Assembly (NCBI GenBank): GCA_040218735.1
Contig: JAVJQW010000022.1
Span: 139,901 to 203,900, forward strand
Source: Deltaproteobacteria bacterium
GTDB lineage: Bacteria; Myxococcota; Kuafuiibacteriia; Kuafuiibacteriales; Kuafuiibacteriaceae
Direction: 5' to 3'
DNA length: 64,000 nucleotides
A model generated the notes under the pieces. It had not been told where the DNA came from. It made no database searches and saw nothing but the letters and a program-made list of their open reading frames with translations. Both the position numbers and the translations under genes were made by a program. Below, piece by piece: positions 25,689-49,319 of the stretch; position 1 is the first letter of the stretch, and each line of letters starts with the position of its first letter.

Positions 25689-28600
25689 ATGGGTCTCGGC
25701 ATCGCGGCGTTGGTCGCGCTCACCGTCGCGCAGTCGCCGGCACCGGAGCCCGAGCGCATCACGGGGCTGGTGATCGATCGCGTGACGTTCGAGGCGGCGC
25801 CGACCGAGGACATCGACGACCTCCGTCAGCTCGCGGGGCTCGTGGAGGGGGAGGCCTTCTCACCGTCGGCGGTTCGCCGCGCGGTGAAGGTGTTGTTCCG
25901 GGTCGGTCGCTTCGAGAACGTGCTGGTGTACGCGACGCGCGACGACAATCGCGTGCGGGTTCGCGTGGTGCTGCCGCCGCGCGGCATCGTGCGTGCGCTG
26001 GAGGTGATCGCGAGCGAGGAGCTGACGCAGGAGGAGATCGAGGAGGCGATGGGGGCGACGGCCGACAGCCCGATCGATCCGCGTCGGTTCCCGCAGATGC
26101 GCGACGCGCTGGAGGAGGTGCTGCGCGACCGAGGTTTTCGGCAGGCCGCGGTGGGGTTGGCGTTCGAGCCGGCCGACGACAGCGGTGGGCTTCGCGTCCT
26201 GGTGCGCATCGACGAGGGGCCGCAGACGGTCGTGCGAGCGATCGCCCTGAACGGAGAGACGAAGCTGCCGCGGTGGGAGGTCGAGCGACGGCTCGGCGTT
26301 CGGCCCGGGGACGTCGTGGACCTCCGCGAGATTCGCGCGGCGCTCGAGAAGCTGACGCAAGACTACAAGCGGGCGGGCTTCTGGGACGCGCAGATCGCGT
26401 TGACGGACGTGGTGGCGAAGCGCGCGACGCGTGAGGGCTCGCCGCTGGCGGACGTGGTGTTCACCGTGGCGCCCGGGCCGGCGGTGAAGGTCGAGCTGGT
26501 CGGCAACGCGGTGATGCCGACGCGGATGCTGGAGCAGGACACGGTGCCGTTGGTGTCGCTGGGGACGGGGCCTTCGATCGTCGCGGAGGTGAAAGAGCGG
26601 ATCGTCAATCGCTACCACCGGCGCGGACACTTCGCGGCGCGAGTGCGCGAGCGGGTGACGACTTCGCCGGACGACAAGCAGCGTACCGTCGCGTTCTTGA
26701 TCCACGAGGGGCCGGTGGGCCGGGTGGGACGCTTGGCGTTCCCCGGCAACACGGAGGTGGACCGGGAGACGCTGGAGCGTCAGGTGGAGGACCTCGTGTC
26801 GAACGCGATGGCCGACGAGCTGAGTCGGCCGGGTGCGGATCCGGCGGAGGTCTCGGCGCTGTTCGGGGACCACTCCACGCAGCGCCCGCGGACGCCGGCG
26901 CAGCCGGACAGCACGGCGCCGAAGCCGGACCGGCTGTACATCGCGCGGGCGTACCAGCAGGCGGGTGACGTCATCGCGGACATGTATCGCGCGCGTGGTT
27001 ACCAGACGGTGAAGGTCGCGGAGCCGGACGTGCGACCGCGCAAGAACCCGACGCTGTTGGACGTGTCGATCGCGATCGAGCCGGGGATGAAGTGGACGAT
27101 CGGGGCGCTGTCGTTCTCGGGGAACGACGCGGTGACGGCGGGTGCGTTGTTCGAGCTGTCCGGGATGGATCCGACGGTGGTCGGTGGGACGGCGGTTTCG
27201 TTCGATCAGGTGGAGGAGGCGCGCCGGGCGATCCTCACGAAGTACCGGAACGACGGCTATCTGTACGCGTCGGTGTCCGAGAGCCTGCGTCAGGTGCCAC
27301 CGCGGGGTTCGTTGGGGAGCTTCGGGTTCGTCGACACATCCACGAGCGCGCCGCTGGACGTGCGCGCGGTGTGTCAGCGCGCCGAGGAGGCGGGCGAGGA
27401 CACGTGTCCGGTGGAGCTGGTGTTCCGGATCGACGAGGGGCCGCAGGTGAAGACGCGCGAGGTGATCGTGCGCGGGGTGAACATCACGCAGGGCGGGGTG
27501 GTGCGGAGTGAGTTGCTCGTGAAGGACGGGAAGATCCTGAGCGAGGACGACATGGTTCGCACGCGCGACAACCTGTTGCGGGTCGGGGTGTTCGAGCGGG
27601 TGACGGTGAGTCCGTTGGACGAGGATCAGGTGGCGTCGGAGAAGGACGTGATCGTCGATGTTCGCGAGCGGAAGAACTACTCGCTGGAGCTCGGGATTGG
27701 TGCGTCGACGGAGGAGGGCGTGCGCGCGTTTGCGGGGTTCGGTGACTCGAACCTCGGCGGGAGCGCGTTGCGGCTTCAGCTCCTCGGCAAGGTGAACGTT
27801 TGGTTGCCGCAGCTGTTGGTGCTGTACGACTCACAAATCCGTGAGCGGATTCAGTCGTTCTACAATGACTTCTCGACGTTCGAGCGCATGGAGTACGAGG
27901 TCGCGGCGGGGTTGAGTTACCCGCGCATCTTCGGGTTGCCGCCGGGGTTCACCGCGGGGCTCGATGTCATCGCGTTGCGCGACTACGATCCGGCGTTCGC
28001 GGAGAACACGCAGAAGATCACGTTGATCGGAAACTACAAGGGGTGGCGCCCGGTGGTGGCGGATGCGCCGCGCCCGGTGGCGATTCAGGTGCGCACCGAC
28101 TTCGAGCGTGCGGACCTGGACTGTAACAACGACCTGGATCGTCCGGAGCTGTGCAGCACGGAGCTGTTCGATCCGAACCGGCCGCGCGTCGAGGGTTCGA
28201 ACATCTACATCTCGGCGGGGCCGTCGGTGAGTTGGGATTTGAGGGACGAACCGCTGAACCCGTCGGCGGGGGCTTATCTGGAGGTCTCCGGAAATTACGC
28301 GAAGGGGTTGGATTCGAACTCACCCGACCACGTGACGGTGGAGGGTCGGGCGAACGTCTATCTGCCGGCGCCGTACATGCGGGGGGTGGTGTTGGCGGTG
28401 TCGTTGCTCGGCGGGAAGATCTTCCCGATCAGCAGCGACGAGGTGCCCGTCAACCGCCGCTTCTTCGCGGGCGGCCGGCGCACGGTGCGTGGGTATCCGG
28501 AGAAGACGCTGCTGCCGCAGGACACGACGCTCGACGCGGACGGCGTGCCGACCGTGACGATCTCCCCCGGCGGTAAGTTGATGCTCGCGCTGAAGTCCGA

Positions 28601-28877
28601 GGTGCGCATCGCGCTGTTCGGCCCGCTGTCGATGGCGATGTTCTACGACGTGGGTGACCTGTGGTTCGACGGTAACTTCTCGCTGTCGACGGAGCAGACG
28701 ATCGGCCCCGCGGACGCGCCGCGCACGGCGACACGAACCCTGGCGCAGGGGATCGGGCTCGGCGTGCGCGTCGCGACGCCGATCGGACCGCTGGCGGTGG
28801 ACTTCGCGGTGCCGCTGAACCAGCGCGACCCGGGCGCCACGGACCCGCAGCTGCACTTCGCGGTGGGGACGTTCTGA
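25689..28877 (+). CDS. BamA/TamA (Omp85) family protein with multiple POTRA domains
   Basis: POTRA repeats (IDEGP, Y...GY); barrel motifs FFAGG..TVRGY, TPIGPLAVDFA; C-terminal F. Confidence 0.92.
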   Translation: MGLGIAALVALTVAQSPAPEPERITGLVIDRVTFEAAPTEDIDDLRQLAGLVEGEAFSPSAVRRAVKVLFRVGRFENVLVYATRDDNRVRVRVVLPPRGIVRALEVIASEELTQEEIEEAMGATADSPIDPRRFPQMRDALEEVLRDRGFRQAAVGLAFEPADDSGGLRVLVRIDEGPQTVVRAIALNGETKLPRWEVERRLGVRPGDVVDLREIRAALEKLTQDYKRAGFWDAQIALTDVVAKRATREGSPLADVVFTVAPGPAVKVELVGNAVMPTRMLEQDTVPLVSLGTGPSIVAEVKERIVNRYHRRGHFAARVRERVTTSPDDKQRTVAFLIHEGPVGRVGRLAFPGNTEVDRETLERQVEDLVSNAMADELSRPGADPAEVSALFGDHSTQRPRTPAQPDSTAPKPDRLYIARAYQQAGDVIADMYRARGYQTVKVAEPDVRPRKNPTLLDVSIAIEPGMKWTIGALSFSGNDAVTAGALFELSGMDPTVVGGTAVSFDQVEEARRAILTKYRNDGYLYASVSESLRQVPPRGSLGSFGFVDTSTSAPLDVRAVCQRAEEAGEDTCPVELVFRIDEGPQVKTREVIVRGVNITQGGVVRSELLVKDGKILSEDDMVRTRDNLLRVGVFERVTVSPLDEDQVASEKDVIVDVRERKNYSLELGIGASTEEGVRAFAGFGDSNLGGSALRLQLLGKVNVWLPQLLVLYDSQIRERIQSFYNDFSTFERMEYEVAAGLSYPRIFGLPPGFTAGLDVIALRDYDPAFAENTQKITLIGNYKGWRPVVADAPRPVAIQVRTDFERADLDCNNDLDRPELCSTELFDPNRPRVEGSNIYISAGPSVSWDLRDEPLNPSAGAYLEVSGNYAKGLDSNSPDHVTVEGRANVYLPAPYMRGVVLAVSLLGGKIFPISSDEVPVNRRFFAGGRRTVRGYPEKTLLPQDTTLDADGVPTVTISPGGKLMLALKSEVRIALFGPLSMAMFYDVGDLWFDGNFSLSTEQTIGPADAPRTATRTLAQGIGLGVRVATPIGPLAVDFAVPLNQRDPGATDPQLHFAVGTF

Positions 28878-28879
28878 GG

Positions 28880-28904
28880 CGGCCCGCCCGTGACGGGCGG
28901 GCCG
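28880..28904. terminator. Hairpin between convergent genes
   Basis: CGGCCCGCCCG-TGA-CGGGCGGGCCG, an 11-bp perfect inverted repeat. Confidence 0.55.
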
Positions 28905-28917
28905 GGACGAGGCGGGG

Positions 28918-30879
28918 CTAGAACTCTTCGACCGCGACTTCGGAGGCGGTGACGATAGTCTCACCGTCCACGACGAACGAGGTCTCGAGCACTGCCGAGT
29001 CGACGAAGTCGAAGTTGAACTCCGATCCGAGGTCGACGACGAACTCCTCGTCGGGGTTCTCGACCTCGATTTTGATGCCCCCCATCGTCGGGTCGCACCA
29101 CGCCGGCTGGCACGGCGTCATGCGTAGAACCATCGTGTCGAGGTCCTCGGTGGCCGCGTCGTACTCGATCTTTCCGGAGAACATCGACTGCCAACCCATA
29201 CAGGCTGGACAAGACGGTTTCCCGGGCTGAGGTCCGACCCAGGGACGCTCGATGTTCTGGTCGATCAGGGGGACCGTCGGAAGGTTCGTCAGCGTCGCCG
29301 GCGTCAGCGGGCCGCTGAGGAGTCCCGGGAACTCGATGTCGATCACGGCGCTCATGTCGACGACGACGTTCGCACCGGCCGGGCGTGCGGGGCACGTGGC
29401 CGGGCACGCGGCGCCCGCGCACACGGCGTGAATCGTGTTGCAGATGTCGATGCGGCGTTGACTGAAGGTCGTGGAAAGGCCCGTGGCACCCTGCTGGAAG
29501 TCCGCGGGTTCGGGCAGCAGAACACCGTTGTCATAGACGAGGTCCACGATATCTCGACGTTCGGCCTGCGAGTCGTAGCGCCAGATGAGCGCGGCGAGCC
29601 CGGAGAACGCCGCCGCCGAGACCGACGTTCCAGAGCGAGCGAGCGTGGGGGGCGAGCCGATGATGTTCTGCGCAAAGGTATCCACGACGCCGAACGCAGC
29701 CGGGCCGACGATTCGTGGCGTGCCGCCGTTGCGCGCAACGCCGAGCGTCTCGTCGCGGCCACTCACAGCTCCGATTGCGTAGAGCGCTGGGCGGTAGCTC
29801 GAGGTCGCGCCGTCGCTACACAGCGTGTCTTCGAACTCCCATCCTCCCGGGTAGAGCGGTCCGGTCTGAGTGGTCACCTGTGCGCGGTTGCCGGCGGCCG
29901 CGACGACGAGCGCGCCTGCGCAGGCCGCGTGCTGGATCGACAGCCAGGCCGCGAGCCCGGTCGTTCGCATGTCGGGGCCGTGAAGACCGGAGTACCTTTC
30001 GTGCCAGCCGATGCTCATGTTCATGACGAGGTTTGCGGAGCTGGCGCTATACTTCCAGTCGTACAGAGCGCGGTCGATGGCGTCGGCCACGTCACTCGGG
30101 TAGCCGTGGGCGCCGCCGTCGAGCGTGAGCGCCTGGTAGGTGAGGATGTCCCCCGCACAGTCGATCTCGGTACCGTTGCGGGAGATGCAGCTCGCATCTC
30201 GTGCGATGGAGCTGACGATCATCCCGTGGTCGGAGTCACCAGGGGGGGGGGCGACGGGGCTCCCATCGGGGGTCGAGTCGATGACCGCAATACGTACCGG
30301 GTGGCCCCCGGGGATCTGCGCACCAGGCCCGAAGTTGGCGTGGTTGAGTTGCGCGCGATACGCATCGCGCAAGAGCGTCGCGGACGCAGGCTGCGTCGGG
30401 AGGAACTGCGGCGCGACGACTCGGCAGTCACGTTCCAACCGCATCCTGCCGGTGTTCGGGAGAGCCGAGATGACCGGAGGCCCCGGGTTGGACGAGGACT
30501 CGATCCACTCGTATTTACAGAACCGATCGAGCTCTTCGGGGTGCTCGGGGAAGTTGCCGCCAACCCAGTTGCTCGTGAACAGGGGGCTGACCTGCCAGGA
30601 GCCCCCCGGAGTCAGCCGACCGGCGGCTGGGCACGTGAATTTGCTGCTGATCGCCGTGAGGTAGTACCCGATCCACCGCTCGTCCACGCACGCGTCCTGC
30701 AACTCCGGCGGGAGGGCGCCCTCGCGTCCCCCGCACGAGTAGCTCCCGCCGCCAGGCGGACACGGTGGAGGCGTGAAGCCCATCGTCGAGATCGACGACG
30801 TCGCGACGCGGAGCGTCTCGGGCTGTTCGGGACCGCAGGCCACGAGGGGCAGCAGCGCGAGGAAGTAGGTTCTGTTCAT
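28918..30879 (-). CDS. S8 subtilisin-like serine peptidase, lipoprotein, Cys-rich
   Basis: Lipobox LVAC; IAVIDS (Asp), DHG (His), NMSIG, AAAGN (oxyanion Asn), SGTSVSA (Ser). Confidence 0.9.
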   Translation of the reverse strand: MNRTYFLALLPLVACGPEQPETLRVATSSISTMGFTPPPCPPGGGSYSCGGREGALPPELQDACVDERWIGYYLTAISSKFTCPAAGRLTPGGSWQVSPLFTSNWVGGNFPEHPEELDRFCKYEWIESSSNPGPPVISALPNTGRMRLERDCRVVAPQFLPTQPASATLLRDAYRAQLNHANFGPGAQIPGGHPVRIAVIDSTPDGSPVAPPPGDSDHGMIVSSIARDASCISRNGTEIDCAGDILTYQALTLDGGAHGYPSDVADAIDRALYDWKYSASSANLVMNMSIGWHERYSGLHGPDMRTTGLAAWLSIQHAACAGALVVAAAGNRAQVTTQTGPLYPGGWEFEDTLCSDGATSSYRPALYAIGAVSGRDETLGVARNGGTPRIVGPAAFGVVDTFAQNIIGSPPTLARSGTSVSAAAFSGLAALIWRYDSQAERRDIVDLVYDNGVLLPEPADFQQGATGLSTTFSQRRIDICNTIHAVCAGAACPATCPARPAGANVVVDMSAVIDIEFPGLLSGPLTPATLTNLPTVPLIDQNIERPWVGPQPGKPSCPACMGWQSMFSGKIEYDAATEDLDTMVLRMTPCQPAWCDPTMGGIKIEVENPDEEFVVDLGSEFNFDFVDSAVLETSFVVDGETIVTASEVAVEEF

Positions 30880-31643
30880 GGATCGTCTCCCGGAGACGGC
30901 ACCCCGGGCGGGGTACCTGAGCTAGTTGGTTCGAGCTGGAACCGATGCTCGACGACGCGTGCGCCCGTTGGTGGCGTCGCCCAACTCGCCGTCGGATCCG
31001 CGATCGGATCCGAGCTGACGACGAGGACGAGCCTCCACGCCCCCGGTTCGAGATTCACGTCCTCACCGAACGTGCCCCCCACCCGAAACGCGCCATCCCG
31101 CGTGACCACCGGGCCCGTCCACGAGTGGGCGGTCCCGTCGGCGTCGACGGCGACTGCGCTCAGGTGCGCGGTCCCCTCGACGGTCACTCGGGGGCGGACG
31201 ATGACGTCGACCTGACTGCCCGCCACGTAGCGGTAGTCGTCCGTCGTCGGCGTATCGCCGCGCACCACCTTCTCCCCCGAGCGCACGACCATCGCGTACT
31301 CGGGGAGAGCGGGGGTGCTCGGCGCCGTGACGAAGAGGACGACCGCCGCTGCTGCGGCCGCCGCAAATCCCGCGGCGGCGCCCAGCCGGATTCGGTTTCG
31401 CCGCTTGGCCGCGAGGTCGACGACCTCCGCCTGCGGTGCGACACCGAACAAAGCCTCGGTCATTCGTGCCCGTTCGTCATCGTCCAGTGGCTTCAACGCT
31501 TCCACCGGTGGAGCGCCGTCGGGGAGCCGATCCTGTCGGCCCTCCTTCGCGGCGTCCCACCAGTCATCCGCTTCGTGCGATCGCGCCTCGACCATCTGTC
31601 CCAGCTTTCGGAGGAGGTCGTCTCGGCCATCGTGGTCCGTCAC
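30876..31643 (-). CDS. Putative membrane anti-sigma factor
   Basis: Short cytoplasmic N-terminal region, VVDLAAKRR then a TM helix, beta-rich extracytoplasmic domain; overlaps the sigma stop (GTGA). Confidence 0.7.
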   Translation of the reverse strand: MTDHDGRDDLLRKLGQMVEARSHEADDWWDAAKEGRQDRLPDGAPPVEALKPLDDDERARMTEALFGVAPQAEVVDLAAKRRNRIRLGAAAGFAAAAAAAVVLFVTAPSTPALPEYAMVVRSGEKVVRGDTPTTDDYRYVAGSQVDVIVRPRVTVEGTAHLSAVAVDADGTAHSWTGPVVTRDGAFRVGGTFGEDVNLEPGAWRLVLVVSSDPIADPTASWATPPTGARVVEHRFQLEPTSSGTPPGVPSPGDDP

Positions 31644-32281
31644 AACGCCCCCCGCTGCTTCCTTCCGGGTTCAGTGGCCGGATCTGACTCGATTTGCTCG
31701 AAAACTTTCATCAGGGTCTTCCGAATGCGCGAACGCCACGCATAGACCGCGTCTCGGGACATCTGATGGTGCTCCATGATCCACGCGACGTCTCGCTGTT
31801 CGACGAACAGGAGTCGAAACATCTCGAATCCCTGGTCCGAGAGCTCGCGTTGGAGGCCCTCCAGGAGCTGCGAGAGCTGCTGTTTGGAGATCGCACGCAC
31901 CTCGGGCGTGGGGCCCTCCGCGATGTCCTGATCGAAGTCGGCGGGGTCCTGCGCGTCCTCGGCGTGGCCGCTTTGGCGCCCGCTCGTGAGGATGTTCAGG
32001 ACTCTGCGCTCCGCGACCATTCCGACCCAGCCCTCGAGGGTCGCGCCCCGCTTCGGGTCCCAGCCGCGGAGGATTCGTCCGTCGTCGTCGAGGAGGATAC
32101 GAAAGACCTCCTGGGTGAGGTCGAGGACGTCCTGGCGCGCCCCCCGACGCCGTCGCACGAGGGCCGCGTTGACCTGGCGTTGAATCGCGGGCGTCAGACG
32201 ATCGACGAGCGCGCGGCAGGCCGTGGGATCACGCGCGAGGGCTCGTTCGATGAGCTGGAGGTCGGAGCCGTGCGGCGCCAC
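31640..32281 (-). CDS. ECF-type RNA polymerase sigma factor
   Basis: Region 2 DVLDLTQEVF..L...WDP.RG..LEGW; region 4 FRLLFVE...MSRDAVYAWRSRIRK. Confidence 0.88.
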   Translation of the reverse strand: MAPHGSDLQLIERALARDPTACRALVDRLTPAIQRQVNAALVRRRRGARQDVLDLTQEVFRILLDDDGRILRGWDPKRGATLEGWVGMVAERRVLNILTSGRQSGHAEDAQDPADFDQDIAEGPTPEVRAISKQQLSQLLEGLQRELSDQGFEMFRLLFVEQRDVAWIMEHHQMSRDAVYAWRSRIRKTLMKVFEQIESDPATEPGRKQRGAL

Positions 32282-32352
32282 TTACACGACCGCCGTTGGG
32301 GTCTCAGTCTGCATCTTGTGCTCCCCGCACATCCAAGTCCCCTGCCATGAGT

Positions 32353-32365
32353 GGCCGTTGATGGT
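32353..32365 (-). promoter_or_regulatory. 13-mer ACCATCAACGGCC upstream of the sigma gene, also found at 37597-37609
   Basis: Exact match in two intergenic regions of the same cluster, same orientation. Confidence 0.35.
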
Positions 32366-32398
32366 CGAATCCTTCGTTCGGCTCGGGCAAGTGGAGGA

Positions 32399-34927
32399 TC
32401 AGCGGACGAGGAGCACGAAAGCGTCCGCGGCCTCACCGACGGCGCGTAGAGCGACCTGGTGAGCGGCTAGCAGGTTGCTCTGATCGGCGGAGATCCGGCC
32501 GTGCAGTGCTGTCGCATATGCGAGAGCATCAGCGCTATCGACTTCGCGATGTGTTGCGATGACAACCTCGGAACCCGCGATCGCAAAGGCCTGAGCAACC
32601 CCTATGCCACCCTCGTCAAGCGTCCCGGTCTTGGCGGTCTCACACCCAGATAAGATCACTCGGCGCGGTACTGATCGCAGCAGAAGAACGTCACCCACGC
32701 TCAGTTCCGTGTCAGCTAGGAGCAAGGCAGAGTCCCATCCCTCCGGTCCCGCACTTCTTCCGTGTCCTGCGAAATGAAAGGCGTCCGCGTTCTGCACCGC
32801 TTCAATGACGGCACTACGGGTCGCGGATCGGCCGGAGATATGGACCAAACTACGCTGCGGGTAGAGGTGTTCGATCTGCGATGCTTCGCGTCGCGCTGCC
32901 ACGAGGTCCCGGCGAGGATCGGATACGATTAGCTGGTTGCTGGCCCGTGTAGGTGCATGGCTAGGACCAAGGTCGAGACCAAAAGCTACAGGTATCTGCA
33001 CACGGAGGTCTCGCGCTAGAGATGCGGCGGTCTCGGGGCGATCAGCGAGGACTAGGATTCTCGCTGCCTCAGAGAGCTCGACGTCGTCGATAGCGGCCGC
33101 TATCCCTTTGTCTAACGGACGAACGGAGATGCCGTTCGCGGTTCGTACGAACAATGTGGGGCCTCGATCTGTTTCGATTGGAAGTGTGACCAGGTCGCCC
33201 GCGGCGAATGCAGGGTCGCGGGTTGGCGTTCGAGGTCTGAGCAGTGCCAACGCTGTCTCCATCGTGTGGTCGACGGCGGTAGCGAGGGCACGTTCTTTTG
33301 CGTCTGCCCGACCGACGTCTTGTTCGGCGGTCGCCCAAGCTTCGTTAGCCCGATAGGAAGCCAAGGCTTCTCGGGCCTCTTCGACAGCAGCAACGCTGTG
33401 AGCCCACTCGGAACCGTCAGCGCCGTGTAGCCGGTGGACCTCCGCGATTGCCGCGAGCGTTAGGTAGGCGCGCCGTCGCGCTCGCCGAGCCACCGTGAAC
33501 GCTTCCAAATCGGCGCCTCGCCCGAGAAGCACTGTAACAAGTTCGCGGGCGCTTTCACTTCGCTCGTTGAGCCAGGCAAAACGCCCTTGTCGGGCAGGCA
33601 TGAGGAACGCCTGCCTTCCAAGAATATCTTCAGCGAGTCGATACTGTTCCTCGGCCTTCGTGACCTTCAAACCTTCGCGGTATGCACGCCCCGCCCCGAG
33701 TCGGGCTCGCCATTCTAGAGCTTCGTAGCGAGTACGCGATGCTCGTTGAGCAAGCCGCACGAACGCATCAGCCGCTGACTCGGTCTGGCCGAGCGCAAGT
33801 TCCAGGCGGGCTCCAAGCAGTGCAATCCAAAGTCGCTGAACTGGGTCCTGTGTCGCGTTGGCTTGCTCGAGCCATACGCTCGCTTCGGCCGAATCCTGCA
33901 GTTCAAGATGTGCGAGAGCCAGGTTGATGATGTGGTGATTTCGAGTGTCCTCGTCCGCGCAGCTACGCTTGGAGGCGTGAATGCCAGCCTCGAAGAGGCG
34001 GGCCGCGGCGCGGGTGTCGTCTGGCCGCTTGAGCATCAGTCGAGCCCACCCAGCGTTGAGTATGTCCGTCGACCATTGGCATCCGCCTGGAGTTGACAGA
34101 CGACTAAGCTCGTCAAAGATCTCTACGGCCTCGGCTGCACGGCCTGATTCCAAAAGAAGCAAGCCACCGAGACTCGCAGCGTCTCGGAGCGCAGGATCTC
34201 CGAGTCGGCGGGCCCACCGAATCGCGTCATCGAGCTCGCGGTGCGCGGTCCGGCGATCTCCGAGGCGCCAAGCAACGAAGCCGCGAAGCCAGCCCATCAA
34301 GACTCGAGATCGACCATCGAAGGACGCTCCGAGGGGAAGGTCACGTCGACGACGCTCCGCCTCCGAGAGTTGTCCAAGAGTCGTGATTTCCAGGTACGTC
34401 AGCGCGTACGCGATTTCTCTCCACCTGTGCGCCAACTTGGAGTTGCGCGCGAGGTCTTCCGCTTCCTCGAGGAGGTGGTGCGCCTTCTCCGCGTCCCCCC
34501 GCCTCAGTGCCCTGAGCCCCGCCTGGTGCAGCCGGTACGCCTCCCTCGGGCCCGCTTCCGCCGGGGTCGCGGTCTGAACCCACTTCAGCGGGAGCTCGAA
34601 CCTCCCGCCCTTCATGTCCACGCGCACGCGCTCGGCGTGGTCCTCGAGCGGCAGCTCCAGCCTCGCGCCGTCCTCCGCGGGGATGAGCTTCGTGGCGACC
34701 TCGTCGCCGTCGATCTGGACTTCGACCTTCGAGGAGGCCGAGGCGTCGAACCACACCGTCAGCGTCGAGCCCGAGGTGTAGAGGCAGGTGCGGTCGGCCT
34801 TGATCTCCGTGCAGCCGCGGAAGACGCCGAAGAGCTCGGGTTTGGGGGGCGACGCCTTGCAGGCGAGCGCCGCGCTCGCCAGCGCGACGAGGGCGAAGCC
34901 CATCGAGGTGGCGCGGTCGCGGCGCAC
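32399..34927 (-). CDS. TPR-CHAT (caspase-like, C-terminal CHAT domain) protein with lipoprotein signal
   Basis: MGFALVALASAALAC lipobox (ATG 34903 is an alternative start); TPR-like helices; catalytic HFAGHG and LSGCET. Confidence 0.9.
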   Translation of the reverse strand: MRRDRATSMGFALVALASAALACKASPPKPELFGVFRGCTEIKADRTCLYTSGSTLTVWFDASASSKVEVQIDGDEVATKLIPAEDGARLELPLEDHAERVRVDMKGGRFELPLKWVQTATPAEAGPREAYRLHQAGLRALRRGDAEKAHHLLEEAEDLARNSKLAHRWREIAYALTYLEITTLGQLSEAERRRRDLPLGASFDGRSRVLMGWLRGFVAWRLGDRRTAHRELDDAIRWARRLGDPALRDAASLGGLLLLESGRAAEAVEIFDELSRLSTPGGCQWSTDILNAGWARLMLKRPDDTRAAARLFEAGIHASKRSCADEDTRNHHIINLALAHLELQDSAEASVWLEQANATQDPVQRLWIALLGARLELALGQTESAADAFVRLAQRASRTRYEALEWRARLGAGRAYREGLKVTKAEEQYRLAEDILGRQAFLMPARQGRFAWLNERSESARELVTVLLGRGADLEAFTVARRARRRAYLTLAAIAEVHRLHGADGSEWAHSVAAVEEAREALASYRANEAWATAEQDVGRADAKERALATAVDHTMETALALLRPRTPTRDPAFAAGDLVTLPIETDRGPTLFVRTANGISVRPLDKGIAAAIDDVELSEAARILVLADRPETAASLARDLRVQIPVAFGLDLGPSHAPTRASNQLIVSDPRRDLVAARREASQIEHLYPQRSLVHISGRSATRSAVIEAVQNADAFHFAGHGRSAGPEGWDSALLLADTELSVGDVLLLRSVPRRVILSGCETAKTGTLDEGGIGVAQAFAIAGSEVVIATHREVDSADALAYATALHGRISADQSNLLAAHQVALRAVGEAADAFVLLVR

Positions 34928-34978
34928 GATCCCCTACGAGGTATCACACGTGGGCCGCGACCGGCCATGGGGCCCAGG

Positions 34979-35551
34979 TCAGCTGCTGCACTCGGACATC
35001 GTGCACTGCTCGAAGCGCTGCTCGCACTGCAGGGAGCACGCGGGGAAGCCGCTCGGACCCTTGACCGCGCACCACGACACGCACGCCACCAGCTTCAAGC
35101 TACACTTCGTGCAGTCCCACTCGCCGCCGTGGGACCCGCCCGACGGGGGCGGGTTCGGGAGCGGCGCCGGGTTGTAGCAAGGCTGGTCGAGCGCCTCGAA
35201 GAACGCGCAGTACGGATCCTGGAACGGCGCCGGGTGGAACGGATCCGGGAAGTACTGCTGCCCCGGCACGCCGATCGTGAACGCCGCCTGGCGCGCGTTC
35301 TCCTTCGTCAGCGCGTAGCCGACGCCCTGGTGCTCCACCACGCACCCGTCGCCGCCGCAGATCACCGGCAGGTCGCGACAGTACTCGGGCATCACGTCTT
35401 CGACGCACGAAACCGCGTCGCAGCACATCGCCACCTCCGATTCGAACCTCGCCGCCGCCGTCTTCTCCGCGAGCTCCGGCTCCGCGCCCGCGCACGCCGT
35501 GAAGCCCGTCGCGAAGAGCGCGAGCGCCATCATCTTCTTGTCGTTGGTCAT
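34979..35551 (-). CDS. Cysteine-rich lipoprotein
   Basis: Strong AG-rich RBS; lipobox FTAC; 17 Cys in 190 aa. Confidence 0.75.
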   Translation of the reverse strand: MTNDKKMMALALFATGFTACAGAEPELAEKTAAARFESEVAMCCDAVSCVEDVMPEYCRDLPVICGGDGCVVEHQGVGYALTKENARQAAFTIGVPGQQYFPDPFHPAPFQDPYCAFFEALDQPCYNPAPLPNPPPSGGSHGGEWDCTKCSLKLVACVSWCAVKGPSGFPACSLQCEQRFEQCTMSECSS

Positions 35552-35575
35552 CGTCTCTCTCCTTCTTTCTTCGAC

Positions 35576-37570
35576 TCAGTTCGCGAAGCCGGCCTGAACG
35601 GTGAACTCGTTCAGCGACTCCGCGGAGTTGTTCGACAGCACCGACTCGTTGTCCGTCTCGACTGACATCCGAATGCGCCACGTCCCGTTGTTGAGCGCGC
35701 CAAGCGGCAGGAACTCGACCGACGAAAACGAGCTCCCCGCCGGCAGCGACGGCGCGCTGCCCGAACCCAGGCTCACGATCGCGCCCCCCGCGTTCACCGC
35801 GAAGAAGTGGGCCGTCCACGTGCCCGCGCCTGCGCTGGTGTTCGTGACCGAGAACGTGACGGGCAAGTCGTCTTGCGGTTCGTAGGTCCCCGGGTAGGCC
35901 TCCACGAAGTCGACCTCGAGGTTGGGCTGCGGCCCCTGGAACGTCAGCGTCTGAACCTCGAATCCGATCGGAGCGACCCTCCGGTTCGAGGACAGGAGGG
36001 ACTCCGGATCACTCGGATCCGCTTTGACTTCGATCGCGAGCCAGTACGTGCCAGCCGGGACCCCCGAGAGCGACACGGCGTCGGATCCCGAGTACGTGTC
36101 GCCGGCGTCCAGCGAGGGGCCGCTGCCGGTGCCGACGAGGAGGGCGTCCTCCGTGAAGAACGGACTCGGGCTGAGGTAGATGTCGGCCGACCAGGGCTTC
36201 GCATCGAGCTTGCCCTTGTTCTTCACCTCGAACGTGAAGTTCACGGCGCCCGAGCTCGAGTACACACCCGGCGTCGCCTCGACCTCCAATACTTCGAAGT
36301 CGACCTCGTGATTTTCGATGACGATGATGTCCATATCCATGAGGATCTCGTCCCGACCCTCGTTGTTCGATTGATTCGCGTCGGGCGCTTCGACCCAGAT
36401 GCCGATGAAATAAGTTCCCGGCGTGACCGAGCCGGGCACGGTGATCGTCGCCGCCGGGACGGCCAGCATCCCGAGCGCGTCGATCGTGACGTTGGGGTCC
36501 TGCCACGACCACAGCGTGGTGTCGCTCGCGCTGATCGAGCCGTTGTTGGAGAGCTTGATGTGTACCTTGACCGGACCGCTGTAGTCCGCCTCCGAGTAGT
36601 TGTGGACGTAGATGCCGTTCACCTCGAGCTTGTCGCCGGCGGCCGGAGCAATCGACTTGTCCTCGATGTGCAAACCCACCGGAGTCAGATCGGGGACGTC
36701 GGGGCGCTCCTCGTAGATGACCTCTCGCAGGACGTCGAAACGCGTCCCGTTGATTCGGACGTAGCGAATCCCTTCGGGCCAGATTGGGTACACCGTGCTC
36801 GCGACCGCACGTGCCGTGTGGTCGTCCTTGTCGGCGAGCGAGCTGCCGCTCATGCCTCCGTAGCCGGCGATGTTCACCTGCACGCGGTGCGCGGTCGGAC
36901 ACCAATCAGCGTCGCCGCTGGTGTACACCATGCTGCCTGCGAGCGGACCGAGCGTCGGGAACGAGTAGCTCTCGTAGTCACCGTGCGTGAGGGCGTGACA
37001 CGAAGCCTCGCCGTAGCCGTACCAACCCGTCAGCGCTCCGATGGGACGATCCAGCGTCACGATCGCCATGTCCCAGTTCCACAGGCCGTGGACCGTCCAG
37101 CCCTCGAACGCCGTGACCTTCTCGATCTCCGCGGTTCCGTACGCCAACGTACCGGGCGTGGCCGTTCCGTGTTCGATTCCGAACCAGCCGAAGTCGGGAT
37201 CGTGAAAACAATGCGCCGCGGTGAGTACGTGGCGTGCGTCGATCATCGTTCCGCTGCACTCGCCGACGTTGACCGTCGCGCGCGCCGGCCACTGACCGGG
37301 GTCGTCCACGGGAGCGATCTCACCCATTCCGAACAGGGTCCCGTAGAGGTCACCGCCGAGCTGGCCGCTCTCTTCGCGTGGACCACCTCCGTTCATGACC
37401 AGGCGTCGCGTCGTCTCGCGGCCCGTCCTGACGTCGTAAGTGAGGACGTTGCCCACACCCTTGGGTTCCTCGGGCGCCGTGAGTTGGGCCGTCGATGACT
37501 GGGCGCTCGCTGGGTTTGGGCATACGAGGGCCACTGCGGCGACGGCCGCGCATTTCGAGAGCGTTTTCAT
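35576..37570 (-). CDS. Trypsin-like (V8/glutamyl-endopeptidase-type) serine protease with CARDB/Ig-like domains
   Basis: Signal peptide; CSGTMI, LTAAHC (His), WDMAIV (Asp), GGMSGSS (Ser); three PDLT/VDFE/PNLE...NN modules. Confidence 0.9.
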   Translation of the reverse strand: MKTLSKCAAVAAVALVCPNPASAQSSTAQLTAPEEPKGVGNVLTYDVRTGRETTRRLVMNGGGPREESGQLGGDLYGTLFGMGEIAPVDDPGQWPARATVNVGECSGTMIDARHVLTAAHCFHDPDFGWFGIEHGTATPGTLAYGTAEIEKVTAFEGWTVHGLWNWDMAIVTLDRPIGALTGWYGYGEASCHALTHGDYESYSFPTLGPLAGSMVYTSGDADWCPTAHRVQVNIAGYGGMSGSSLADKDDHTARAVASTVYPIWPEGIRYVRINGTRFDVLREVIYEERPDVPDLTPVGLHIEDKSIAPAAGDKLEVNGIYVHNYSEADYSGPVKVHIKLSNNGSISASDTTLWSWQDPNVTIDALGMLAVPAATITVPGSVTPGTYFIGIWVEAPDANQSNNEGRDEILMDMDIIVIENHEVDFEVLEVEATPGVYSSSGAVNFTFEVKNKGKLDAKPWSADIYLSPSPFFTEDALLVGTGSGPSLDAGDTYSGSDAVSLSGVPAGTYWLAIEVKADPSDPESLLSSNRRVAPIGFEVQTLTFQGPQPNLEVDFVEAYPGTYEPQDDLPVTFSVTNTSAGAGTWTAHFFAVNAGGAIVSLGSGSAPSLPAGSSFSSVEFLPLGALNNGTWRIRMSVETDNESVLSNNSAESLNEFTVQAGFAN

Positions 37571-37660
37571 TCCTACTTCCCTCCGAACTCAGTTCGGGCC
37601 GTTGATGGTTTCGATGGTTGTCCCTTCAGGACGAACCACCGCGGTCTGACAGCTCGGAGG

Positions 37661-40459
37661 TCAGAAAGTCGACAGCTGCAGACGGTTGCCGCGCAAGATG
37701 ACTTGCCGCGGCCGAATGTTCAGCGTCTCCAGGACAGGCACCCGAACCGCGATCGGGTTGTTGACGATGCTCCCCTGCGACAGATCGATCTCGCCATCCT
37801 CGTGTCGCTCTTGCTCCACCTCGAGCGCCAGCGTCTCGTTGTCGCGGAGTGTGAACGCCTCGAGGCGCAGCTTCGCCTCGCTGATCCGCAGCGCCGCCGC
37901 CCCCGGCAGCTCGCCCGTCGTGCTCCGGGCGACGATGAGGTTCTTGATGACGGCCAGTGGAGTGTCCCGCAGGATGACTCCGGTTCCGCGTGTCCGGGTC
38001 ACCTGGAGTCGGTCCAGCGTCACGTCATACTTCATCCCGTCGAGCAGCACGCCGTAGCCGGCGGCGTTGTCCACCAGCAGGTCGTTGACCGTGATCTCCA
38101 GGTGTACGCCGATGAACGCCGCTCGACCCGCGTCCAACTGCGACACCTCGAACGCGCTCGTCGCGGTCGTGACGCGGACCCGATCGAGGCGCGCAACCAT
38201 GTCGGGGAGCACGGAACCATCGTCGAGCTCGAAGCCGGGGTCGTTCGTCAGCGAGACGCCCCGGACGAGCGGCTTCGTCTCGACGACGAGGTCGTCGATG
38301 TCGATGTCGAACGCGCCGTAGCCCAGGAAGCCGTGGCGATCGAACTCCGTGAGCGACGCGCGCGCGAGCCTCACCGTCGACAGCGGACCCGCACCGAACG
38401 CGCCGCCCGGTTTGTCTTCTTGTCCCAACGGCGCGCGCACGTTGCGGACGATGACGTCCTCGAAGTCGCCCCGCGCGTCTCTGAACGCGACGTCGATGCC
38501 GTTGCCGACCACACCCTCCACCCGCACGCGCCGCGCCGTGATCGCGCCGCCGCCCGCGACGATGATCGCTTGGGCGCCGGTGGCGTCGTTGCCGACGTCC
38601 TCGATCGTGAGGTTCGTGACCGTCGCCGTCGTGCTCGGCTCCAGCACCGCCAAGGCCTCGTCCCAGATCCCTCGCAGGTGCACGCCGTTCAGCGTCACCG
38701 CGGCGGCCGCCTGCGCGCGGACGCCGTAGCGCCCGGTCGCGTCGAGCGCGCCCTCGACCACGAGGTTCTCCGTGACGAGCGCGCCTCCGACGACGAGCAG
38801 ACCCGCGGCGCCGCCGCGCACGTGGAGGTTGCGGAGCGTGACGTCCGCCGACTCGAAGAACCCCGACAACACCCCCACGCCGTCGACGGACCGCGTGTCT
38901 TCGACGACGACCTCGTCGAGCTGGGCCGCCGCGTTTGCGACGCGTAGGCCGGTGACGAGCGGCCGCTCGATGTACAACCGGCGGCCTTCGAGTCGGCCGT
39001 TGGCGAAGACCAGAGCCGCTGGGAGGTCACGCCCGCGTTGCCGGTCGAGGCTCGAGTCGCGGATCGCGACGCGATCCACGTCGACCGTAGCGCCCTCGAC
39101 GAAGAGCGCCGAGCCCGCTACCCGATCGAAGGAGACGTCGATCAGCATGACGGTCGCGCCATCGCGCGCGACGATCCCCATGCCCGCGTTGGCTGTGGTC
39201 ATCACGTCGAACACCGTCACACGTACGAGCTCCGCTTCGCCCGCGAACGCCGCGAGCGCGTTGCCGGTGACCGGCCCGATCGTGACGTCTTCGAGCACGG
39301 CGCGTCCCGTGATGGAGAGGAGGTCGGCGTCCCCGGGGTCGGTGTCGCGCACGCGCGCCCGTCGCAGCTCGAGCACGCCGTCGACCGGTACATGGTTCGT
39401 CGCGAGGACGACGTCTTCGAGGATCGCGGTGGCGTCGACGGGGACGTCGAGCTGGGTGGCTTCGAACGTCACGCCCTGAGCGCGAGCGCGCAGCTCGATG
39501 CGCGGCGCCGCGACGGTGGTCTGCGCGGCGCACTGACCGACGAGCGCGACGTCGAGGGTCCACTGCGCGGCGGAGTAGACACCGGGGGCGAGCGCGATCG
39601 TCGCGCCCGGCGCTGCGGTTGCGAGCGCGTCCATGAGGTCGTCGTAGGGGAGGGTGGAGGTGCCGTTCCCGTTGGGCATCGCGTCGTCGTCGACGTAGAC
39701 GGCGTCGGGCGGGAGCGTCGGCCACGCGCAGGTCGCGCCGACCTCGACGCAGGCGCCGGCCTCGATGCGCTCGCCGTCGCCGCAGGTCGGAACGTCCGGA
39801 TCGAACGGCGCGCAACCGACGACGCCGCTGTCGAAGGTCTTGGAGGATTCGCCGTCCGTGCACGTGAAGACGACCGGGCTCGGTGGTATCGGTTCCATCG
39901 GGCTCATCGGTGTCGCCGGGAGGTCGGGGAGGCGGTCACAGCTGACGTCGAGGACACGAAGGGCGGGCTCCGGGGCGCCGATCAGCTCGCTGCAGGACCG
40001 GTTCGTGTCGACCTTCAGGCGAACGTCGGAGAACTCCTTCGGCGTCTCGTCGACCTGCTCCCAGTCGCCGGTTTCCTCGGCGAGGCGCGTCCACCCTACG
40101 AGGAACGGGGCGAGGGTGCGGCCTTCGTCTTCGGTGAGGAGGCGCACCAGCCTGTTGGCGTCGGGCTCGGCGACGATGCCGAGGTCGATCAGGGACTCCT
40201 CGTAGTAGCCGACGAAGAGCCGCTCGCCGCCTTCGACGCCGAACATGCGATAGAAGGCGTCGATGGGGCCGCCGTAGACGGTCACGGGGGCGCCCTCGAC
40301 CGCGAGGATGACGGTTTGGGCGCCGAGCGGCGGCTCACGCGCACGGAGCTCGAAGGCCGCGTCGCAGCCCGATGTGAACCACGCGCATACGATACCGAGG
40401 CCTGTGGCTAACGTTGTTCGCACAGCGTCCGATGAGAGGATCCAGCGCACCAGGGTCAT
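37661..40459 (-). CDS. Lipoprotein with right-handed parallel beta-helix repeats
   Basis: Probable start ATG 40459; TSGC lipobox; VYVDDDA..GNGT..PY...DAL....GATIALAPGVY, then about 25-aa beta-helix repeats. Confidence 0.8.
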   Translation of the reverse strand: MTLVRWILSSDAVRTTLATGLGIVCAWFTSGCDAAFELRAREPPLGAQTVILAVEGAPVTVYGGPIDAFYRMFGVEGGERLFVGYYEESLIDLGIVAEPDANRLVRLLTEDEGRTLAPFLVGWTRLAEETGDWEQVDETPKEFSDVRLKVDTNRSCSELIGAPEPALRVLDVSCDRLPDLPATPMSPMEPIPPSPVVFTCTDGESSKTFDSGVVGCAPFDPDVPTCGDGERIEAGACVEVGATCAWPTLPPDAVYVDDDAMPNGNGTSTLPYDDLMDALATAAPGATIALAPGVYSAAQWTLDVALVGQCAAQTTVAAPRIELRARAQGVTFEATQLDVPVDATAILEDVVLATNHVPVDGVLELRRARVRDTDPGDADLLSITGRAVLEDVTIGPVTGNALAAFAGEAELVRVTVFDVMTTANAGMGIVARDGATVMLIDVSFDRVAGSALFVEGATVDVDRVAIRDSSLDRQRGRDLPAALVFANGRLEGRRLYIERPLVTGLRVANAAAQLDEVVVEDTRSVDGVGVLSGFFESADVTLRNLHVRGGAAGLLVVGGALVTENLVVEGALDATGRYGVRAQAAAAVTLNGVHLRGIWDEALAVLEPSTTATVTNLTIEDVGNDATGAQAIIVAGGGAITARRVRVEGVVGNGIDVAFRDARGDFEDVIVRNVRAPLGQEDKPGGAFGAGPLSTVRLARASLTEFDRHGFLGYGAFDIDIDDLVVETKPLVRGVSLTNDPGFELDDGSVLPDMVARLDRVRVTTATSAFEVSQLDAGRAAFIGVHLEITVNDLLVDNAAGYGVLLDGMKYDVTLDRLQVTRTRGTGVILRDTPLAVIKNLIVARSTTGELPGAAALRISEAKLRLEAFTLRDNETLALEVEQERHEDGEIDLSQGSIVNNPIAVRVPVLETLNIRPRQVILRGNRLQLSTF

Positions 40460-40494
40460 CGTCAATCGCCCGTGGCTGCGCCGGAGTCGCCTGG

Positions 40495-40842
40495 ATGAGC
40501 ATCGCACGAGGAGCGCCCCGAGTGGACGTCGAACGGCTGCGGGTCGGGTACGGCGGCGGCGTCCACCGCGTCCGCGGGAACGTCTCCGCGACGGGCGTAG
40601 GCTTCTGGATCGACACCGTGAGCCCGCCGCTCGTGAACGACGCACTCCTCGTCGAGGTCGAGGCCGTCAACGAGGAGCCGGTGCTCGTCCCGGCCCGTGT
40701 GCGGCATGTGCGCTACGACAACACGCGCAAGGCGTACTACGTAGGTGCGGCGTTCGTGCCCACCGACGAGCTCGTCGACGCGTCCCTGTACCGGTACGTC
40801 GAGGAACGCATGTTGTCGTCGCGGACCGGCGTCATCTGCTGA
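40495..40842 (+). CDS. PilZ domain protein
   Basis: RGAPR (RxxxR) and NVSATG (D/NxSxxG); VRHVR...VGAAF. Confidence 0.75.
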   Translation: MSIARGAPRVDVERLRVGYGGGVHRVRGNVSATGVGFWIDTVSPPLVNDALLVEVEAVNEEPVLVPARVRHVRYDNTRKAYYVGAAFVPTDELVDASLYRYVEERMLSSRTGVIC

Positions 40843-40885
40843 CCGTCCTTCGACAAAGCGGTTTTCGTGGGATAGTGGGTGCTGA

Positions 40886-45736: not shown

Positions 45737-46615
45737 CTACTGAAGCTCCGCCTTGGTGACGAGCTTCTTGAGAACTTCGTTTCTGTCGTCGGTCATGACG
45801 AGCTCCTCCATGTCGGAACGATCGACGAGCACCAGACGAAGTCCATGCGTTCGCTTGGTCCGAGCCACGTCGTAGACCGGACCTGTGAACCCCCCTGCGG
45901 CAAAGAAGAACCCGAGCGCACCGGGTCGGTCCTGCACTTTCGTGGCGAACCATCCGACCTCAGGGGTACCGACGGACTTGGTCCAGTTCTTCGCCTCGCA
46001 CAGGATGAACGCGGGTTGCTTGGACCAGAACGGGTCCGTCGATTCGTTGCGGATCGCGACGTCGAGCTCTTCGGCCGGCGTGCGCAGGTTGCGCCCCGCT
46101 TCGAGGAGTCCGGGCACCGAGGTCATGAACATCAGAATGAGCTCTTCGAGACGCCGACCCTTCGCGTGCGCCGAGCCCTCCCCGAGCTTCGACCACAGCT
46201 GGCGGATCAGCGCGTCCGCGACGGGGCGACCGCGCTGTTGGGCGCGCACGGTCTCTCGGATCTGGCTCAGCTTTGCGGTCAGCAGCGTCGGGAGTAGCGG
46301 GTCCTTGACGAGGTAGTCGTAGGCGCCGCCGCGGAACGCGCGGCGGATCGAACCTTCGTCCGCGAATCCTGTCACGAGCAGAACCTTGGCCGTGGAGAAG
46401 CGCGCGGACTCCAGAAGATCGACGCCGTCATCGGGACCCGATCCGCCCTGGAGACGTTTGTCGAGCAGGACGACGTCGAAGTCGCCGGTCTCCCACGTCG
46501 CCTTTGCCTCCGCGCTCGACCCGACGATCGTGCCCACGTAACCCTCGTCGGCGAGGATCTCGGCGTACGTCTCCTGCATCGCAGGATCATCTTCCACGAC
46601 CAGCACGTTGAGCAT
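45737..46615 (-). CDS. Response regulator (REC) fused to an Mrr-like PD-(D/E)xK restriction endonuclease domain
   Basis: REC: VLVVEDD, DVVLLD (phospho-Asp), VTG, YLVK. Nuclease: KGRRLEE, EELDVAI, LCEAKNW..VG, GFFFA..GFT. ATG 46615 lies 10 nt after the kinase stop. Confidence 0.88.
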   Translation of the reverse strand: MLNVLVVEDDPAMQETYAEILADEGYVGTIVGSSAEAKATWETGDFDVVLLDKRLQGGSGPDDGVDLLESARFSTAKVLLVTGFADEGSIRRAFRGGAYDYLVKDPLLPTLLTAKLSQIRETVRAQQRGRPVADALIRQLWSKLGEGSAHAKGRRLEELILMFMTSVPGLLEAGRNLRTPAEELDVAIRNESTDPFWSKQPAFILCEAKNWTKSVGTPEVGWFATKVQDRPGALGFFFAAGGFTGPVYDVARTKRTHGLRLVLVDRSDMEELVMTDDRNEVLKKLVTKAELQ

Positions 46616-46625
46616 GATGGCTACC

Positions 46626-48170: not shown

Positions 48171-48278
48171 GAGGCGGACGCTACCGCCGCCTGGGGGGAG
48201 AGGCCAGCACTCGAGCGTAGGACTTGCCCTCGCGGTCAGTTGCGCGCGCGCCGGGTCCGGCGGGATTCTCCCCGGTCT

Positions 48279-49076: not shown

Positions 49077-49082
49077 CCGGGG

Positions 49083-49319
49083 TCAGCCTGCTTGTCGAAG
49101 ATGAAAGACCGGGGCGGTTGCGATCGGCTTCCGTCCGCCGTCCTGAAGTAGTCGTTCGATCCGTTCGACCGTCTCCGGCTCGAACTCCACGTCGCCACAG
49201 CTGTCGCAGACGAGCGCCGGGACGTCGTCGATGACGATCAGCTCGCCACCAGGTCGAACGGTGTGGGGCACGAGCTTGCGGTCGTAGGCTCCCGGACAAT
49301 CGTTGATAGAGCACTTCAT
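49083..49319 (-). CDS. YgiT-type zinc finger protein (MqsA-like antitoxin domain)
   Basis: MKCSINDC...LIVIDDVPALVCDSCGDVEF.PETVERIERLL; 78 aa. Confidence 0.85.
   Translation of the reverse strand: MKCSINDCPGAYDRKLVPHTVRPGGELIVIDDVPALVCDSCGDVEFEPETVERIERLLQDGGRKPIATAPVFHLRQAG

Follow-up and report, generated by a model that had tools for sequence, protein, structure and literature searches.

We analysed a 64,000-nucleotide stretch of contig JAVJQW010000022.1 (positions 139,901 to 203,900; hereafter the window) from a Deltaproteobacteria bacterium of the Myxococcota, in which six co-oriented open reading frames (ORFs) form a cluster on the minus strand (28918..37570). Judged from comparative sequence data, four of these genes, encoding a sigma factor of the extracytoplasmic function (ECF) type, a putative anti-sigma factor, a predicted exported TPR-CHAT cysteine protease and an S8 subtilase, are a real and conserved module that is independent of clustered regularly interspaced short palindromic repeats (CRISPR), and the other two, a trypsin-CARDB gene and a Cys-rich gene, are locus-specific. 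We consider it fairly probable that the module acts through regulated intramembrane proteolysis with four components, in which the CHAT protease would cut the anti-sigma factor at Arg128 and the sigma factor would induce secreted proteases. The support is computational and consists of the linkage of the genes, signals of topology, conservation of the catalytic residues, an Arg that never varies, a promoter motif and one natural fusion. The six genes are the following:

35576..37570, minus strand: trypsin-CARDB, secreted protease (Pfam Trypsin E 3.5e-9, CARDB E 2.5e-8; triad motifs H120/D167/S241)
34979..35551, minus strand: Cys-rich lipoprotein with 17 Cys (lipobox FTAC20; best Atlas score 0.76, a lead only)
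32399..34927, minus strand: TPR-CHAT cysteine protease, predicted exported (Pfam TPR_MalT and CHAT; H722/C762; lipobox ALAC23)
31640..32281, minus strand: ECF sigma factor (Pfam Sigma70_r2 below cutoff; NCBIfam sigma70-ECF E 1e-9; Myxococcota/Acidobacteriota family)
30876..31643, minus strand: putative anti-sigma factor (no Pfam family; helical N-domain, one transmembrane helix, Ig-like domain)
28918..30879, minus strand: S8 subtilase, predicted exported (Pfam Peptidase_S8 E 2.6e-10; D201/H218/S419; lipobox LVAC15)

The ORF boundaries are those of an earlier sequence-only reading of this DNA, and its description of the six co-oriented genes was confirmed, with the domains assigned by Pfam and NCBIfam. 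Both 4-nt overlaps that it had seen (sigma/anti-sigma and anti-sigma/S8) are real, and the gap between the CHAT and sigma genes is 117 nt. As it had also noted, catalytic motifs were found in all three proteases and each carries an export signal, either a lipobox-like N-terminus or, in the trypsin, what looks by eye like a type I signal peptide. Export was predicted by heuristics throughout, and ALAC23 of the CHAT protein failed a strict lipobox pattern and passed a relaxed one. The Cys-rich protein gave no match in Pfam or NCBIfam. No cas genes, which had likewise been reported absent, were detected among the part of the window ORFs that was scanned (30 with Pfam, 22 with PADLOC).

To place the cluster among its relatives, GTDB was scanned with the sigma alignment alone as anchor. 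The 57 family loci (E<=3e-19) among the matches listed served as our sample (loci are labelled L001 onwards), and 21 loci with weak sigma matches (E>=2e-8), from other phyla than the family loci, served as controls. Partner genes were sought in both sets with profiles seeded from the window proteins. An anti-sigma-like gene was found in 52/57 family loci, a TPR-CHAT gene in 45/57 and an S8 gene in 32/57, and none of the three was found in any of the 21 controls. The four-gene neighbourhood, whose conservation the sequence-only reading had wished to see checked, is conserved in gene content. In the 40 loci with full flanks the numbers were 38 for anti-sigma, 36 for CHAT and 27 for S8, with no CHAT gene lacking an anti-sigma gene and no S8 gene lacking a CHAT gene. 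Homologues of the trypsin-CARDB gene, the Cys-rich gene and the beta-helix gene upstream of the cluster were found in 0 of the 78 fetched loci. The commonest order, as read from the gene maps, was sigma-anti-CHAT-S8 (24/57); the order of the window recurs in its nearest relative, L001, and the CHAT gene stays adjacent also in divergent and convergent arrangements. Among the labelled loci, 35 are from Myxococcota, 16 from Acidobacteriota and three from Pseudomonadota. The closest relatives of the window sigma likewise make a host from the Myxococcota most likely.

Tree distances were correlated between sigma and CHAT (rho 0.65) and between anti-sigma and CHAT (rho 0.57; 0/500 permutations), the weakest correlation being that of anti-sigma with S8 (rho 0.25; 8/500 permutations). 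For these sequences the correlations show co-inheritance only, not co-evolution. In the sigma tree, a quick version, only 6 of 55 branches had good support, and no transfer claim was drawn from it; the sigma factor had no plasmid match. Paralogous sigma copies were seen within single metagenome-assembled genomes (MAGs) of Polyangiaceae and Myxococcales (L007, L034 and L048; L040 and L046), three of them with the module. Family sigmas with neither an anti-sigma nor a CHAT gene nearby are present in L028 and in L002 (9992-10759), the latter with a C-terminal extension of about 45 aa.

The putative anti-sigma factor consists of a cytoplasmic helical N-domain, one transmembrane (TM) helix (about 87-106) and a periplasmic immunoglobulin (Ig)-like domain (110-240), and one TM helix was also found in 145/150 proteins of the anti-sigma family (+1 gene). 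Although it has 2,876 representatives at 50% clustering (E<=1e-10), this family has no Pfam name; no consistent Pfam family was obtained (13 families with one member each) and no convincing sequence match in the PDB. Profiles were needed for these searches, since the single sequence found only two proteins. The zinc motif HxxxCxxC was present in 0/150 anti-sigmas, and the window anti-sigma contains no Cys. By fold it matches a generic Ig-like sandwich (best Z 9.7, root-mean-square deviation 3.0, 97 aligned), with the match rows covering mainly residues 110-241. The Atlas neighbours are unnamed Myxococcota/Acidobacteriota clusters together with clusters that contain 18% zf-HC2 and 33% DUF4384, and hhalign gave no homology with the N-domain of the CHAT protein (probability 0.2%).

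Arg128, at the position below, is invariant in 49/49 anti-sigmas, and in a set of 150/150 it is the sole invariant column (mean column identity 24%).

31260..31262, minus strand: codon of Arg128, the invariant residue of the anti-sigma family, with the predicted cleavage site between R128 and G129

The following residue is G, S or A in 95% of the proteins. Arg128 lies within a coil (123-136) between two strands, in a block modelled with low confidence (pLDDT, the predicted local distance difference test score, of 63). Its invariance, the small residue after it and its position in a flexible loop of the periplasmic part lead us to propose Arg128 as the candidate cut site; separase, a relative of CHAT, cuts after Arg (PMC11506125). 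Five of the 52 anti-sigmas (L007, L008, L016, L027 and L048) were left out for a frameshift, low complexity or an uncertain start. The Arg is visible in four of them, and in L027 the motif is outside the viewed span.

The TPR-CHAT protein starts with a signal sequence and lipobox (C23, with K at +2), followed by a disulfide-bearing beta-sandwich, a TPR superhelix and the CHAT domain, and the last three parts are present in its AlphaFold2 model (pLDDT 91). The sequence-only reading had called the lipobox unusual for this family. This does not hold within the subfamily, where a hydrophobic leader was found in 34/37 CHATs and a lipobox in 22/37, compared to 45/470 and 2/470 internal windows. The 37 are the CHATs with a locatable N-domain, 11 CHAT ORFs in nine loci without one being left out; of the three leader-negative proteins two show a leader by eye and the third is the fusion described below. 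These predictions suggest that an exported CHAT is the norm in the subfamily and that it is usually lipid-anchored. A +2 Lys in lipoproteins is an inner-membrane signal (PMC3222651); this was set aside as an explanation, as it fits the window CHAT, yet occurs in only 2/22 family lipoboxes.

H722, C762 and E681 are invariant in 37/37 CHATs, in sequences that are about 27% identical. With the single CHAT sequence nothing under E 0.17 was found in the PDB, and profiles were needed; the best profile match was DdvA (E 1.6e-12). Foldseek ranked the DdvA structures 8RW5 and 8ROT first and second, followed by separase and Csx29. The CHAT protein is fused to the anti-sigma in one of 45 loci: in L019, a Haliangium MAG, anti-sigma and TPR-CHAT form one ORF (10624-14067, plus strand) with no internal signal peptide and with uniformly high G+C content at third codon positions (GC3). 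This fusion shares the topology of DdvA.

Enumeration of bipartite motifs upstream of the S8 genes yielded GTCA-N18-CGAA, and the same enumeration upstream of CHAT or sigma genes gave no enriched bipartite motif. The promoter matrix (TGTCAGAA...GCGAA), at a leave-one-out score of at least 14, matched 16/33 S8 upstream regions versus 3/834 control windows. Matches were also found ahead of sigma genes, within the sigma gene at about 50 nt from the anti-sigma start, and in front of various other genes. The plain pattern of this promoter (family form GTCAGA-N16-CGAA) occurs 51 times in the 962 kb of the family loci versus 0 times in 299 kb of control loci, which are from other phyla. A site lies at most 110 nt from the anti-sigma start in 15/52 genes, that of the window included, and in 13 of these at 38-53 nt. 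We infer that the computed motif is recognized by the family sigma. In the window there are two candidate sites:

37625..37650, minus strand: candidate promoter GTCAGA-N16-TGAA at the cluster head, ahead of trypsin-CARDB
31663..31688, minus strand: candidate internal promoter GTCAGA-N16-GGAA inside the 3' end of the sigma gene, 45 nt before the anti-sigma start

The first sits between the beta-helix gene and trypsin-CARDB, and the 45-nt offset of the second is shared with L001, L026 and L031. The relaxed pattern GTCAGA-N16-NGAA, a relaxation made after site 37625..37650 had been seen, has these two matches in the 64-kb window (chance mean 0.41; at least 2 in 7/100 shuffles). A pattern with one mismatch was not above chance (6 versus 4.1).

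Downstream of promoter matches we counted 20 non-core genes, several with lipoprotein-like starts or with TSP3, RTX, fungalysin-propeptide or GEVED domains; ten had no Pfam match and two are housekeeping genes, probably there by chance. The S8 proteins have an invariant catalytic triad and oxyanion Asn (34/34) and a hydrophobic N-terminus in 26/28. Because S8 in the relatives and trypsin in the window lie downstream of the predicted promoter of the sigma family, both proteases are likely outputs of the regulon rather than triggers. In L019, family promoter sites are located ahead of the sigma gene, of S8 and of a divergent lipoprotein gene. In L018:17064, L023:7935, L030:7839, L033:15850 and L053:2961 the gene after S8 encodes a member of an unnamed family that reaches about 770 aa; it has its own family promoter in four of these five loci and no Pfam match save a weak one to GEVED. 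In L007 a gene for 2,829 aa with an SpvB-type N-terminal domain (1110 onward, plus strand) lies upstream of the sigma gene, with a family promoter before that sigma.

The sequence-only reading had taken the CRISPR-linked Csx29/Csx30 as precedent. Two systems that it missed are closer, namely the periplasmic DdvA/DdvS of Myxococcus xanthus (PMC11506125, PMC6061681; PDB 8ROT, 8RW5) and the gene context of the group ECF54. DdvA/DdvS and the window module both have an ECF sigma, a single-pass anti-sigma and an extracytoplasmic TPR-CHAT with a His-Cys dyad, export being predicted for the window protein. A CHAT site-1 cut followed by RseP is proposed in both models (PMC11506125), and a 16-nt promoter spacer is common to both, with GTAA-n16-CGT for DdvS versus GTCAGA/CGAA for the window family (PMC6061681). 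In DdvA the CHAT is fused to the anti-sigma, whereas in the window it is a separate exported protein (PMC11506125). DdvA has a zinc-binding CHCC anti-sigma domain, whereas the window anti-sigma has no zinc motif, an Ig-like domain of its own and the invariant Arg. The DdvS regulon is described as cyclic oligonucleotide-based antiphage signalling (CBASS) and CRISPR genes, whereas the predicted targets of the window family are secreted proteases and lipoproteins. In its proposed way of working the split exported CHAT module is like DdvA/DdvS, and related systems are already known.

In the mechanism that we propose, the single-pass anti-sigma would tether the ECF sigma to the inner membrane. The separate exported TPR-CHAT would, as DdvA and Csx29 suggest by analogy, sense an extracytoplasmic protein signal via its TPR superhelix and become active. 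As site-1 protease it would then cut after Arg128, which lies some 20 residues beyond the TM helix on the outer side, and the Ig-like cap would be released. An RseP-type site-2 protease together with cytoplasmic proteases would free the sigma, as suggested by DdvA, which is cleaved by RseP when deprived of its TPR-CHAT (PMC11506125). The sigma would finally transcribe from GTCAGA-N16-CGAA promoters, producing S8, extra anti-sigma as negative feedback and lineage-specific secreted proteins, which in the window would be trypsin-CARDB and the Cys-rich lipoprotein.

Several observations weigh against this mechanism. The anti-sigma would bind the sigma through its N-domain, which we infer from gene position and topology, and for that domain no match to a class I anti-sigma domain, in Pfam or among PDB sequences, or to the zinc motif was found. 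Of the 150 anti-sigmas with the invariant Arg, 107 are top matches of a profile in which the Arg was already present, and Arg128 could be invariant because it serves in binding or in the structure. Specificity for Arg is not given, as the CHATs of craspases cleave after Met or Leu, and CHAT cleavage was never observed even for DdvA, whose H862A and C907A mutants were like the wild-type, with the signal absent (all PMC11506125). The family loci are not independent (16 are from Acidobacteriota and three from one MAG) and the controls are from other phyla. Among the complete loci, 4/40 have no CHAT gene (L002, L024, L028 and L035), and L024 and L035 keep an anti-sigma with the Arg. Moreover, 17/33 S8 genes lack a site at the leave-one-out threshold, the window sites carry T and G at the position that is C in 47/51 family matches, and the 12 highest matrix scores of the window include neither of them.

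Part of this evidence would suit a different role of the TPR-CHAT, that of an RseB-like partner or gate which shields the anti-sigma via Arg128, with another host protease making the site-1 cut and the CHAT activity serving another substrate or self-processing. The two CHAT-less loci that retain the Arg would fit such a gate, as would DdvA, for which CHAT cleavage has not been seen and the active site is described as incomplete (PMC11506125). However, the dyad is invariant across these very divergent CHATs and is kept in the three hypervariable alleles described below, and an Arg followed by G, S or A in a loop fits a scissile bond. We regard the gate as unlikely.

The sequence-only reading had proposed a protease cascade outside the inner membrane that cleaves the anti-sigma and releases the sigma. 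Of this proposal, the route from an extracytoplasmic protease over the anti-sigma to the sigma stands, as a CRISPR-independent conserved module with a plausible external cut site; the cascade of three proteases does not. In that cascade, trypsin and/or S8 would act upstream, activating the CHAT or cutting the anti-sigma themselves. The presence of S8 in 27 of the 40 complete loci, with its invariant triad and export signals, would be compatible with this, and two-protease CHAT cascades are known from type III-B CRISPR (10.1101/2023.06.23.546230), a subtilase is paired with CHAT in ECF54 (PMC7826278) and the induced S8 may exert positive feedback. Against it, trypsin is missing from all 78 loci, S8 is absent from 9/36 complete CHAT-bearing loci and never occurs there without CHAT, and in 16/33 cases a family promoter precedes S8 itself. 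An upstream cascade is therefore quite improbable in our view, and S8 and trypsin are likely targets.

A further possibility is that the three proteases are without exception outputs and form a secreted kit for digesting prey or protein, with the Ig domain as a sensor that is cut by a general periplasmic protease. This would agree with the most frequent gene order, in which CHAT is located downstream of the internal promoter, and with the M36-propeptide and other secreted proteins that follow promoter matches, but the L019 fusion and DdvA tie CHAT to the anti-sigma and its adjacency is kept in divergent and convergent arrangements, which makes this very unlikely.

Other known systems resemble the module in part. 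ECF54 of Actinobacteria (Casas-Pastor 2021, PMC7826278; PMC8999054) comprises the same set of an ECF sigma, a conserved +1 gene, a subtilase and a TPR-CHAT, and its predicted -35 element GTATCAG shares TCAG with TGTCAGA of the window family, whereas the -10 elements are CTCC and CGAA, respectively (PMC7826278). The group is 100% Actinobacteria and is described without an anti-sigma, in contrast to the window family from Myxococcota/Acidobacteriota, where the +1 gene has a TM helix. The window family differs further in its +1 gene, which in ECF54 has a carboxypeptidase-regulatory-like domain (PMC7826278), and in the predicted export of its proteases. Our data suggest that the ECF54 +1 gene may be an overlooked anti-sigma and the ECF54 subtilase a target. 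ECF210 was left uncharacterised by its authors, who give neither context nor promoter, and its genera (Sorangium, Sandaracinus and Chondromyces; PMC7826278) overlap with those of L006, L024 and L027. The comparison of the window sigma with both groups is based on their published descriptions.

In the type III-E system Csx29-Csx30-CASP-sigma (PMC10028731) a TPR-CHAT, which is also a structural match of the window CHAT, cleaves a separate anti-sigma and frees an ECF sigma whose promoters are found within the same locus. That Craspase is cytoplasmic, activated by Cas7-11/RNA and cuts after Met or Leu, in contrast to the window cluster with its export signals and no cas genes found. The type III-E neighbours Cas7-11, Csx30 and Csx31 and a CRISPR array were not seen beside it in the ORFs and repeats scanned. 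Cyanobacterial HetF-PatU3 (PMC9457339) and caspase/ECF/DUF1822 neighbourhoods (PMC8195603) are further examples of a CRISPR-independent CHAT or caspase with a dedicated substrate and of a caspase adjacent to an ECF sigma. Compared by their descriptions, they differ in having another substrate family, no S8 and no reported exported Ig-capped anti-sigma. The literature searched, which leaves most subscription papers outside, yielded no account of a split form with an exported CHAT, nor of the cut site or promoter of such a form. The work on DdvA leaves open whether a periplasmic CHAT is a true anti-sigma site-1 protease, and according to its authors validation must await the signal (PMC11506125). 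In the split module, enzyme and substrate are separate genes with one invariant candidate bond and a predicted reporter promoter, so that this can be tested in trans.

The CHAT gene of the window is a mosaic, with the following tract:

32399..34420, minus strand: hypervariable tract of low GC3 that takes in the greater part of the TPR region and the whole CHAT domain, with the breakpoint at codon 169

The breakpoint had a log-likelihood difference of 50.7, versus a maximum of 7.7 in 200 shuffles, and G+C at 4-fold sites is 0.98 in codons 1-180 versus 0.56 in codons 181-842. Two related proteins, P0127 and P0128, are 92-98% identical to the window CHAT over aa 51-150. Beyond aa 200 the identity falls to 38-70% and 36-74%, respectively, and the two differ equally from each other. 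The sigma and anti-sigma that are probably on the contig of P0127 are 97% and 98% identical to those of the window. A family-wide GC mosaic was ruled out, as 0/36 relatives show it, and so was pseudogene decay, since the frame is open, the dyad intact and conserved columns are retained. The His-Cys dyad is present in all three alleles, and the columns kept in all three comprise 137/202 family-conserved versus 155/456 variable ones. Because family-conserved columns are preferentially kept, the tract is under purifying selection. No second copy that could serve as silent cassette or template was found in the best 20 of at least 60 direct-repeat families. Cassette exchange or local hypermutation of the sensor is a possible origin, the data being three proteins and one DNA sequence.

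A tentative and rather doubtful extension of the proposed mechanism is that the TPR-CHAT is an extracellular pattern-recognition protease, whose sensor-protease cassette would be exchanged or hypermutated between near-identical strains to recognize foreign proteins (phage, predator, prey or non-kin). The membrane anchor, anti-sigma, Arg and sigma would stay fixed, and one conserved cut would switch on the secreted protease kit. If true, this would be a CRISPR-free, caspase-like surface pathway for immunity or prey sensing with diversifying receptors and thousands of anti-sigma clusters. A defence role is suggested by the analogy to DdvA and by the hypervariability, and these two are its only basis. 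Either way, the hypervariable CHAT alleles offer a handle for a ligand search. No cas families were found in the 148 neighbouring proteins scanned, of about 540 non-core genes called.

Elsewhere in the window (50338-55806, minus strand) lies a gene for a type ISP restriction-modification enzyme whose C-terminus bears an additional S24-like domain. Its 4-fold-site G+C dips to 0.5-0.7 over the specificity region, resembling the CHAT tract. It adjoins a gene for a histidine-kinase-like ATPase and, after that, one in which a response-regulator receiver is joined to an Mrr-like nuclease domain (45737-49001, minus strand), and these genes are possibly a defence island. A 166-nt direct repeat (87%, 489 nt apart) occupies 48905-49559, and three 42-nt repeats occupy 49587-49712.

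Two further elements were noted at the cluster itself:

28880..28904, no strand assigned: hairpin rich in G+C, flanked by the stop codons of the convergent tamA-like and S8 genes and seen by eye; likely the 3' boundary of the cluster
32353..32365, minus strand: 13-nt element with a second copy in the trypsin leader (37597-37609)

The hairpin, towards which tamB/tamA-like genes converge on the cluster, was not flagged by a terminator scan that requires a T tail. The 13-nt element has only these two matches in the window with at most one mismatch (chance mean 0.16), the query being derived from the same two sites. A sigma-70 promoter scan of 28500-40900 found none. Directly ahead of the sigma gene, a 10-codon frame with an ATG start and a good ribosome-binding site (32282-32314, minus strand) ends in a TAA that abuts the sigma GTG start in frame, and translational coupling is possible. 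The co-oriented beta-helix gene upstream of the cluster (37661-40459, minus strand) has a possible lipoprotein leader. At the end of the window, a 66/67-nt array (62319-63187) was ruled out as CRISPR, having no unique spacers. It is a tandem repeat of about 13 units by span and directly adjoins an ORF that runs from 63159 to the window end (minus strand) and contains a motif that we take to be HNH-like.

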